Assembly (NCBI GenBank): GCA_016840085.1
Contig: JAEOTA010000086.1
Coordinates: forward strand, 64,001-128,000
Reading direction: 5' to 3'
Length of the DNA stretch: 64,000 nucleotides
From: Promethearchaeota archaeon
Lineage (GTDB): Archaea; Asgardarchaeota; Lokiarchaeia; Sigyniarchaeales; SOKP01
Numbering within the stretch: position 1 is the stretch's first letter; each line of letters begins with the position of its first letter. The translations under genes and the position numbers were made by a program. Positions 12,498 to 34,307 of the stretch are shown one piece after another. Below the pieces are notes generated by a model that did no database searches, was not told where the DNA came from, and saw nothing but the letters and a program-made list of their open reading frames with translations.

Positions 12498-13193
12498 TTG
12501 GAAATAATTTGCGGCATAGACGAGGCTGGTAGAATATAATTCAGATCGAATTATATGCAAATAGGTTCTGTCTTAGGCCCTATGGTTATTTGTGGAGTCT
12601 GTTTTACTAGAACTAAATTAGAATTTTTATCTGAAATTGGAGTTAAAGATTCAAAGAAATTATCAACCATAAGAAGGAATCAATTATCTGAACTTATCAA
12701 AAGTAATTGCTATTCTCATAAAATTATAGTGGTAAATCCTCACGAGATAGATCAGAGAGAAAAGAAAAATTTAACACTTAATCGACTTGAGGAATTAAAA
12801 ATGGCTGCCATCATTAATGATTTAAGGCCAAACATTATATATATTGATGCAGCTGATGTAAATGAAGAAAGATTTGGAAGATCAATTAAAAATTTACTAA
12901 ATTACAATCCAAAAAGAATTATATCTAAACATAAGGCTGATGATATTTATCCAATAGTTTCGGCAGGATCAATAATTGCAAAAGTTAAAAGGGATACTTT
13001 AATAGATGGATTAAAAGAAAAATATGGAGATCTTGGTTCTGGATACCCTTCTGATGTAGTAACTATTGAATTTCTTCGAGAATGGATAAAGAATCATAGA
13101 AAAGCACCCTCTATTGCAAGGAAATCATGGAATACCACCAAAAATATATTAAATGAAGAAATCGCTAATAGAAAAATAACTGAATTCTTTTAA
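12498..13193 (+). CDS. rnhB: ribonuclease HII, split by a 30-nt candidate BHB intron (exon 1 12498-12532, exon 2 12563-13193; 221 aa spliced)
   Basis: TTG 12498 gives MEIICGIDEAGR; after the insertion GSVLGPMVICG, VKDSKKL, IYIDA, HKADDIYPIVSAGSIIAKVKRD, GSGYPSD. Confidence 0.93.
12533..12562 (+). other. candidate bulge-helix-bulge intron in rnhB mRNA
   Basis: In-frame TAA 12537-12539; perfect 9-bp stem ATATAATTC/GAATTATAT with 5-nt loop; bulges AG^A and AT^A; removal restores GGT AGA GGT (G-R-G). Confidence 0.8.
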
Positions 13194-31627: not shown

Positions 31628-32434
31628 CTAAGACGATTTAACTAACTTTATAAGATAAAAGAGATGTCCAGTTGACTCATCATTACTAATAATAGTGGCA
31701 CGAAAACCGTATTTAAAGGCAATTTTTTTAAAATATTGGGCGTTTAAGAAAAGAAGTTTAAACGGAATCCCAATTTGACCTTTATATTGAGGAATATATA
31801 CTACAAACCAGTATTTTAAGGTACGAATATGTCGTATAATTGTTAATACCTGACCGTCGTGATTAAGTAAGCTGTATAGTCGCTTCAACATTATTTTTAA
31901 TCTATATCGTGTTCCTGAGAGTGCAATATCGTTTCCAATGAGTGTAATAGTGTCGAAAGTGTTGTTGAATTTGTATGTAAAAAAATCACCTATAACACAA
32001 TTATCTATTCCCTCTTTTCGGGCAATATTGTTAATTATTGGTGAGATTTCTATCCCGGTTACGGTTCCTTTTTCCATTAAATAAGGAATATAATATCCTG
32101 TACATGATCCTATATCAAGTATACGTCCTTGTGCTAACTCAATAAGTTTTCTTTCCAAAGGAAAAAGTTCATCTAAACTTCTAAAATAGATCCCTAAATC
32201 AAATTCCCATTTTATATCATTAAATTCCTTTTGTAAGCAGTACTGGTCTAATGTAAACTTAGATTTCATCTTGCTAGAATAAAATTCTCTTATTGCATCG
32301 GCAAACAAATCCATTGAACGAGTGGTAGGGTGTAATGTGAAGAATGGTAACAATCTAAATAATTTCTCAAAATAGGGCACATATCTTGATAATATCTTAA
32401 ATAATCGGAAGATATAATGGGAGAATATTGACAA
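31628..32434 (-). CDS. class I SAM-dependent methyltransferase
   Basis: ILDIGSCTG, VTGIEISP, FDTITL. Confidence 0.85.
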   Translation of the reverse strand: MSIFSHYIFRLFKILSRYVPYFEKLFRLLPFFTLHPTTRSMDLFADAIREFYSSKMKSKFTLDQYCLQKEFNDIKWEFDLGIYFRSLDELFPLERKLIELAQGRILDIGSCTGYYIPYLMEKGTVTGIEISPIINNIARKEGIDNCVIGDFFTYKFNNTFDTITLIGNDIALSGTRYRLKIMLKRLYSLLNHDGQVLTIIRHIRTLKYWFVVYIPQYKGQIGIPFKLLFLNAQYFKKIAFKYGFRATIISNDESTGHLFYLIKLVKSS

Positions 32435-32833: not shown

Positions 32834-33316
32834 CTACTCAGATATAATTTCGAATACCATTTTCTCTATGATTGGTTTCTTGGTATACCGTTTGTCGTAA
32901 TACCAGCCTACAAGGTGCGCTTTTTGTTCTTTTTCTGGAGCAGGTGGCACGACGATTATCATCACCCCGTTGGACAAGTACTTCAGGATTCTCTTGTCAA
33001 TAGCATGAAGCTTCTCATTTCCCGATGGATGAGAATGCCATTGCCAAACGATATCAACTCCAAGTTCTTGTTTAAACTTACGCATATTATAGATTTTCGA
33101 TTTTTTATACCTCATCCAACTGCGTGGTTTTACATGAACTTTCATTTTCCGTAAATCTGGATTCATGATAAACTGTGTGCAGATGCCAAAGTTCTCCTTA
33201 CGGTCGGCAAAGAGCCATCCATGAACAATATTAGGATATTCTTCTGCTGCTTTTTGTGTGATTTCCTTAAATAAGCTCTCAGGTATTAAGTAACGGAAGT
33301 CTTTTACCCCACTCAT
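32834..33316 (-). CDS. JAB/MPN (JAMM) domain protein
   Basis: EEYPNIVHGWL ... WHSHPSGNEKLHAID. Confidence 0.78.
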   Translation of the reverse strand: MSGVKDFRYLIPESLFKEITQKAAEEYPNIVHGWLFADRKENFGICTQFIMNPDLRKMKVHVKPRSWMRYKKSKIYNMRKFKQELGVDIVWQWHSHPSGNEKLHAIDKRILKYLSNGVMIIVVPPAPEKEQKAHLVGWYYDKRYTKKPIIEKMVFEIISE

Positions 33317-33506: not shown

Positions 33507-33612
33507 TGGTGGGCCAGGAGAGGTTTTCAAGAAAAGATGAGAAATCTTCTCTTATTGAACTCCCGACCTTCTCGGTGTAAGCGAGACGTCATAACCACTA
33601 GACTACTGGCCC
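33507..33612 (-). tRNA. tRNA-Val(TAC) with encoded CCA and a 30-nt intron at 59/60 (33524-33553)
   Basis: Acceptor GGGCCAG/CTGGCCC-ACCA, anticodon arm CTCG-CT TAC AC-CGAG; strict BHB with central helix TTCA/TGAA and bulges AT^A and AA^C. Confidence 0.93.
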
Positions 33613-33621
33613 ATAACTAAG

Positions 33622-33704
33622 CGCAATCGGTGGGATTCGAACCCACGAGTCCGTTGGACACCGGTTTAGCAGACCGGCGCTCTACCAGGCTAAGCGACGA
33701 TTGC
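33622..33704 (-). tRNA. tRNA-Ser(GCT)
   Basis: GCAATCG/CGATTGC acceptor, CCGGT-CT GCT AA-ACCGG, long variable arm, GGTTCGAATCC, G73. Confidence 0.95.
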
Positions 33705-34084
33705 AGATTTGATAAATATTTGATATAATACAATTTCAATATAACGATTCAAAATTTTAATATTTTATTATAAAATCTAGCTTCAAAAGATATATTTCAT
33801 TCCTTATGAAAGAAATTCTTATCAGATAAATGAAAAAAGCGAAATTAATTCGAAATTTTTGATTGCTTTTTCTTGGTATAATGAAAATAATAGATGACTA
33901 AAAATCGTGTAAAATTTAGCTTATTGTTAGTGTTTTTGACTCATTTATTTATTTATTTTTTTCTATTGATTTTTTTAAAATTATAAGAGAGCTTAATAGT
34001 AAGGAGGGGAAGAATAAAAAAAAATTTATTATAGTTAAAATAATCTAATTTAATAGCTAAGTATCTATAAATCAAATATATTGT

Positions 34085-34195
34085 GCAGACGTAGCCTAGC
34101 TGGTAAGACGCCGGCCTTGAGTGTTATAATGAAGATTCATAATATTGATAGCCGGTGCGCGTAAGCGCTCGGGGGTTCGAGTCCCTCCGTCTGCG
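34085..34195 (+). tRNA. tRNA-Ser(TGA) with a 28-nt intron at 37/38 (34122-34149)
   Basis: GCAGACG/CGTCTGC acceptor, CCGGC-CT TGA G^A-GCCGG, variable arm GCGC-GTAA-GCGC, GGTTCGAGTCC. Confidence 0.92.
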
Positions 34196-34233
34196 CTAAA
34201 TTTATATTGGTAAAATTATTATTATATTTGAAA

Positions 34234-34307
34234 GGGCTATTGGCGCAGGCAGGTAGCGCAACCGGCTCTTAACCGGCAGGTCGGGGGTTCGAATCCCTCA
34301 TAGCCCG
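34234..34307 (+). tRNA. tRNA-Lys(CTT)
   Basis: GGGCTAT/ATAGCCC acceptor, CCGG-CT CTT AA-CCGG, GGTTCGAATCC. Confidence 0.95.

Follow-up and report, generated by a model that had tools for sequence, protein, structure and literature searches.

A tRNA-Val(UAC) gene in this window (the whole 64,000-nt stretch of DNA analysed here) carries an insert in its T-loop, and the rnhB gene of the same window carries another with an identical internal layout. Does this likeness mean that one family of minimal introns spreads between tRNAs and mRNAs, or do the two inserts follow a common norm? The genome belongs to Promethearchaeota/Lokiarchaeia, judging by homologous proteins and named records. The features are collected in Table 1.

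Table 1. Features of the window, and candidate mRNA introns of the genome grouped by the basis of their detection
Feature	Position in window	Strand	Basis
tRNA-Val(UAC), complete with encoded CCA	33612-33507	-	
tRNA-Val(UAC) 5' exon, positions 1-59	33554..33612	-	
BHB intron at 59/60, 30 nt (1+9+5+9+4+2)	33524..33553	-	
tRNA-Val 3' exon, positions 60-73 and encoded CCA	33507..33523	-	
tRNA-Ser(GCU), intronless, 8 nt upstream of tRNA-Val	33621..33704	-	
tRNA-Ser(UGA), anticodon-loop intron without good BHB	34085..34195	+	
tRNA-Lys(CUU), intronless here, 59/60 intron in relatives	34234..34307	+	
rnhB insert, relaxed BHB, 30 nt, in-frame TAA	12533..12562	+	
RNase HII (PF01351) match spanning the insert	12510..13139	+	
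Candidate mRNA introns: rnhB, E2, E1			homology
Candidate mRNA introns: purA, rps3 (two), rpo10, EF-2 (two)			restored motifs
Candidate mRNA introns: three more			restored frame only

The tRNA-Val insert forms a strict BHB, with a 5-bp exon helix that is the T-stem, a fully paired central helix (4/4) and two 3-nt bulges; the intron helix is paired at 9/9 positions and closed by a 5-nt loop. Once the 30 nt are cut out, tRNA-Val(UAC) regains a 7-nt T-loop and a standard cloverleaf, and the precursor folds better than 200 of 200 shuffles (z −3.3). A UAC anticodon reads GUA under standard wobble rules. Since the assembly holds a single Val-UAC gene and GTA accounts for 36% of the Val codons in the genome, the cell needs the spliced tRNA-Val. 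On this sequence evidence, the insert is to be taken as a genuine intron, in the sole tRNA able to read GUA. A pseudogene, or an insert created by faulty assembly, is hardly credible: neither ARAGORN nor Rfam at its gathering score calls the gene, but it is single copy with intact arms, and related introns that show compensatory changes occur in orthologues from independent assemblies. Nor does the insert resemble a homing (ORF-containing) intron of the archaeal rRNA type, as it spans only 30 nt and neither encodes nor adjoins a homing endonuclease; the genome has one reverse transcriptase and four LAGLIDADG-type matches, none of them near tRNA-Val.

Among 69 Val-UAC orthologues in the family, the T-arm is interrupted at 59/60 in 24, at 58/59 in two and at 53/54 in two, and the 41 uninterrupted T-arms have exactly the joined sequence. 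In the relative G067, the exons are near-identical and the insert is absent. Where intron length at 59/60 was measured by script, it was 30 nt in 16 of 17 cases and 32 nt in the other, and the interior sequences at this site fall into at least three unrelated-looking kinds, in different genera. Exon base 57 covaries with its partner in the intron (G57 stands opposite C 40 times and opposite U five times; A57 stands opposite U in 28 of 32), and the BHB structure pairs 95% of cells as compared to 46–64% in slid controls, a figure drawn from kin that are not independent. The claim of a strict BHB at the non-canonical 59/60 site, with a 30-nt intron partitioned 1+9+5+9+4+2, is thus borne out by structure, empty sites and covariation.

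The Val intron has a scattered distribution when mapped on a phylogeny of DUF2110, a protein encoded next to it, and in several well-supported pairs one sister lacks it. This pattern would follow from repeated precise loss or from lateral spread, and the DUF2110 tree, which is only partly resolved, does not choose between them. Introns of about 30 nt are also present in the D-arm and at 32/33 of Val-UAC orthologues, in mosaic combinations, and five different positions are occupied within one genus. Two further matches to the Val intron sequence, in G033 and G054, lie inside intact reading frames and are due to chance.

The neighbours of tRNA-Val encode a JAB protein, a methyltransferase and DUF2110, and tRNA-Ser(GCU) and tRNA-Val(UAC) are probably carried on one precursor. 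The four-tRNA cassette (window 33507-34307) is inverted relative to DUF2110 here and in G072, as compared to most relatives checked. Immediately downstream of tRNA-Val are the JAB-domain protein and the methyltransferase (window 32834-33316 and 31628-32434), in the place that DUF2110 occupies in relatives. A sigma-70 promoter scan carries no information here because the host is an archaeon.

The rnhB insert splits the DEAGRG motif. An unspliced insert, either read through or lying in a dead gene, whose likeness to the real tRNA intron is a coincidence of partition, would be in keeping with the relaxed BHB here, in which only 3/4 of the central pairs form. This is very improbable in view of the family record. 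By our count, about 78 of 127 rnhB genes in the family have an in-frame stop at the insert site, and the 35 inserts examined (in-frame cases plus frameshifted cases of 28–31 nt) share a common junction, their central helix covarying with exon wobble bases. The insert is 30 nt in 31 of these 35; the remaining four, of 28, 29, 29 and 31 nt, shift the frame, so read-through cannot rescue those genes. Furthermore, intron-free orthologues carry the exact joined DEAGRG motif. The rnhB insert is therefore, by comparison of these genes, very probably an mRNA intron.

At least 12 candidate mRNA intron sites were found in the genome, all of 30–32 nt, by two means: comparison with 0.8 Mb of G005, where homology gave three sites of 30 nt each, and motif-guided checks; an ab initio scan of the genome for BHBs with ORF fusion was too noisy for counting mRNA introns. 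In relatives, the E2 gene contains BHB inserts of 29–32 nt at four different positions. A literature search, with most subscription journals outside it, returned no paper on mRNA introns in Asgard archaea.

How special is the match between the two inserts? As the earlier note stated, the Val and rnhB inserts are equal in length (30 nt) and in partition (1+9+5+9+4+2) and differ in sequence, and this match is real, the rnhB central helix being the relaxed one. The numbers 1, 4 and 2 in the partition are uninformative because they are fixed by the BHB definition. Introns interrupt 29 of the roughly 35 tRNA genes in the genome; of 43 such introns, 31 measure 28–32 nt, and six of the seven introns at 59/60 are 30 nt, according to an automated census in which some labels are wrong ('Cys' is Phe-GAA and 'Met' is probably Tyr) and some boundaries approximate. 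Across the family, 87 of 87 distinct T-loop introns are 28–32 nt, in a search that required only tRNA stems, allowed 10–60 nt and took in many orthologues; the 59 among them that were not selected by length show the same range. Anticodon-loop introns, unlike the T-loop class, can be as short as 16 nt or as long as 59 nt. Clustering left 83 tRNA introns, of which 36 are 30 nt; the 9+5+9 register is found in 32 of these 36 and in all nine mRNA sites of 30 nt. About four in ten tRNA introns match the rnhB partition as well as the Val intron does. The hairpin itself is beyond chance but the Val–rnhB match is not, because the partition is the family norm. The earlier note had reasoned that widely varied intron geometries would reduce the match to coincidence; geometry proved uniform across the genome, but the same uniformity takes away the significance of this particular pair.

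The 59/60 intron pattern extends to 137 of 161 genomes phylum-wide. Intron lengths elsewhere, judged by eye, are about 18–23 nt in most of G176, which belongs to another family, and 20–37 nt in family f13. Since other families have other length ranges, the norm of about 30 nt belongs to the lineage, and we regard it, from these comparisons, as lineage-specific. The T-loop introns of G176 are mostly 18–23 nt and those of two genomes of the same genus about 30–31 nt, a shift in intron size that is genome-wide. Several other tRNA genes of the genome deserve mention. tRNA-Phe(GAA) (G000 C19:57232(+)) apparently has four introns of 28–31 nt, and a probable selenocysteine tRNA (G000 C32:24375(+)) has a strict 30-nt intron at 59/60 and a second insert in its 5' half. 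The anticodon-loop introns of the tRNA-Ser(UGA) in the window and of tRNA-Ile(UAU) (G000 C32:27368(-)) have poor central helices and depart from the 30-nt norm; the genome encodes a tRNA with a UAU anticodon.

The larger proposal of the earlier note was that both introns may belong to one family of minimal introns that spreads between tRNAs and mRNAs. In its full form, tRNA and mRNA introns would derive from the same small mobile element through a single insertion route and would since have diverged; for example, an excised intron could be re-ligated into a new RNA and copied back to DNA, with the four exon-pairing bases retuned. The equal length mode and register of the two classes speak for such an origin, as do the introns of about 30 nt at five different positions among Val-UAC orthologues and the presence in the genome of a single reverse transcriptase and of four LAGLIDADG-type matches. 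The hairpin loops add to this. The 5-nt loop is common to both classes (pair 9 is formed in 83–100% and pair 10 in 11–25%), and both favour A as the first loop base, U as the fourth and C as the fifth, with C-G as the closing pair. Loops with UC at positions 4–5 occur in 11 of 28 tRNA and 4 of 9 mRNA introns as compared to 7.8% of genomic hairpins with a 5-nt loop, and a loop profile trained on tRNA introns scores the 15 mRNA sites above controls (p about 3e-4; permutation p 0.0005–0.0035), these statistics coming from eight tests on small numbers with controls that are richer in A+T. In the Val intron the closing pair is U-A, and the UC is all that it shares with the signature. Taken together, length, stem-loop register and this weak loop signature support the assignment of tRNA and mRNA introns to one class.

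Spread between tRNAs and mRNAs did not find similar support, and we consider a single mobile family unlikely. The Val and rnhB hairpins agree at 10 of 23 bases. In a sample of 107 tRNA introns and 15 mRNA sites, short of a full census, the best identity between tRNA and mRNA clusters was 67%, against 70±4% in pair-shuffled controls; no cross-class pair was above chance, and no near-identical introns were found in non-homologous tRNA and mRNA hosts, although mean cross-class identity was slightly raised (0.309 versus 0.292±0.004). No potential donor emerged within the genome either, as no G000 intron had a copy elsewhere in G000 above shuffled controls. The rnhB-type pattern was confined to rnhB in 135 genomes; its sole match outside rnhB, in G007, lies inside an intact ORF and is due to chance. 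The distributions also differ, the rnhB intron being present in most of the genus and in seven genera and the Val intron being patchy. The loop is among the best-kept columns of the old rnhB orthologues (C 0.93, U 0.96, G 0.96), so selection accounts for it no less well than descent does and better than recent copying. Finally, a preprint on Asgard tRNA introns (10.64898/2026.10.13.758758) found no general route of arrival. The shared loop signature and the raised mean identity could equally be remnants of common descent.

Copying of introns was seen from tRNA to tRNA only. In G033 (C4:18299-18482), where Ser(UGA) and Lys(CUU) lie side by side, the 59/60 introns of the two genes agree at 19 of 23 bases, a value that the null reached in 8 of 300 trials, and this is the one pair above null among 1391 cross-tRNA pairs. 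The shared intron likely reflects copying between tRNA types; the flanking exon is the same at both sites, as gene conversion would need.

RtcB is intact in the genome, and the sole EndA gene in the assembly encodes a beta-like protein without the catalytic His. This protein (G000 C79:3618-4226) has its full length and retains the catalytic Tyr and Lys, with Thr in place of His; among its best 120 matches it is 79–92% identical, unusually well kept for a structural subunit. Most relatives have two EndA paralogues, and by our count the catalytic alpha is present in 57 of the 60 searched. The relatives' alpha has a Tyr/His/Lys triad and a crenarchaeal-type loop with a KPR motif, which lines up with the specificity loop of A. 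pernix (K44 and R46 there). The EndA alpha and beta subunits bind each other. In relatives, radA is followed by the alpha gene and, over at least 10 kb, by neighbours that include the A-type ATPase operon. The whole segment is absent from this assembly, which has a gap after radA (G000 C78 after ~254430; stated completeness 98.8%), and tblastn and peptide-motif searches of this assembly found no split or hidden alpha. The missing alpha is best read as an assembly gap and not a gene loss, and the relatives support an EndA of the (alpha-beta)2 type with a broad-specificity loop for the lineage. The assertion that the cell has the activity to splice the rnhB mRNA accordingly stands for RtcB in this genome and for the broad-specificity type of EndA in relatives; as the catalytic subunit is not in this assembly, that part of it rests on the relatives.

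We consider it probable that the Val intron is a BHB tRNA intron, one ordinary member of a lineage-wide class of 28–32 nt, and that its likeness to the rnhB insert reflects a shared norm and not a tRNA–mRNA transfer. The T-arm of pre-tRNA-Val folds into a helix-bulge-helix-bulge-helix, both bulges would be cut by the (alpha-beta)2 splicing endonuclease, and RtcB would join the exons into the GUA-reading tRNA. The norm, common to tRNA and mRNA introns, would consist of the BHB, a stem of about 9 bp and a 5-nt loop often ending in UC; the most likely reasons for it are the range of introns that the shared enzyme processes well, descent from old founder introns, or both. We know of no enzyme that measures intron length or reads the loop. 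Present-day movement would be limited to same-position copying and precise loss via homologous exons, from tRNA to tRNA and between lineages. A bolder reading, unlikely in our estimate, is that one standardised class of micro-introns (about 30 nt, with a 9-bp stem and a 5-nt loop ending in UC) entered tRNAs and essential mRNAs alike by a single route, and that a single EndA/RtcB system, recognising the hairpin in addition to the BHB, excises them. If true, this would be a prokaryote with genome-wide non-spliceosomal mRNA splicing in which tRNAs are the intron reservoir.

Under the preferred reading of a shared norm, the Val tRNA intron alone is ordinary for Asgard archaea, and its value is as an internal standard for the mRNA inserts. 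Splicing is obligatory for the tRNA introns, and since the inserts in mRNAs agree with these in length, register and loop, it becomes much harder to doubt that the inserts are spliced as well. The tight norm of 28–32 nt and the loop bias, unlike the variable interiors of known BHB introns, bear on whether Asgard EndA reads more than the BHB.

The intron position is known, as 59/60 is a listed non-canonical site of archaeal tRNA introns (Marck and Grosjean 2003, via PMC4090602); what is unusual is the lineage-wide standard of size and loop, and the class-level link to candidate mRNA introns. The Val intron resembles the non-canonical introns described there in its strict BHB, its T-loop position and the association with an (alpha-beta)2 EndA. 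Known archaeal tRNA introns span 11–175 nt (PMC2738675), whereas here the non-anticodon introns are held to 28–32 nt with a preferred 5-nt loop. [quoted passage not shown] Both studies centre on Atabeyarchaeia and Freyr/Jordiarchaeia, where the median intron is 22–23 nt, and the words 'mRNA' and 'Lokiarch' do not occur in the main text of the preprint. For the question raised there of how tRNA introns arrive, the present family is well suited, with one tRNA that has five intron positions in a single genus. In Thermoproteales, where tRNA introns transpose (Fujishima 2010, via PMC4090602), introns of the same type likewise occupy many positions, and 28% of introns belong to families that span different tRNAs at 80% identity (10.64898/2026.10.13.758758); here cross-tRNA pairs are rare, with the G033 pair as the one clear inter-tRNA copy. 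The candidate mRNA introns are like the cbf5 pre-mRNA intron of Crenarchaeota (PMC2738675), the only coding-sequence BHB intron within the searchable literature, and the BHB in the 5' UTR of HVO_1309 in Haloferax (PMC7714728), in having an mRNA BHB with a relaxed motif and patchy gain and loss. Those systems each involve one gene, with introns of 16–44 nt and a variable interior, whereas the present genome has at least 12 candidate sites of 30–32 nt.
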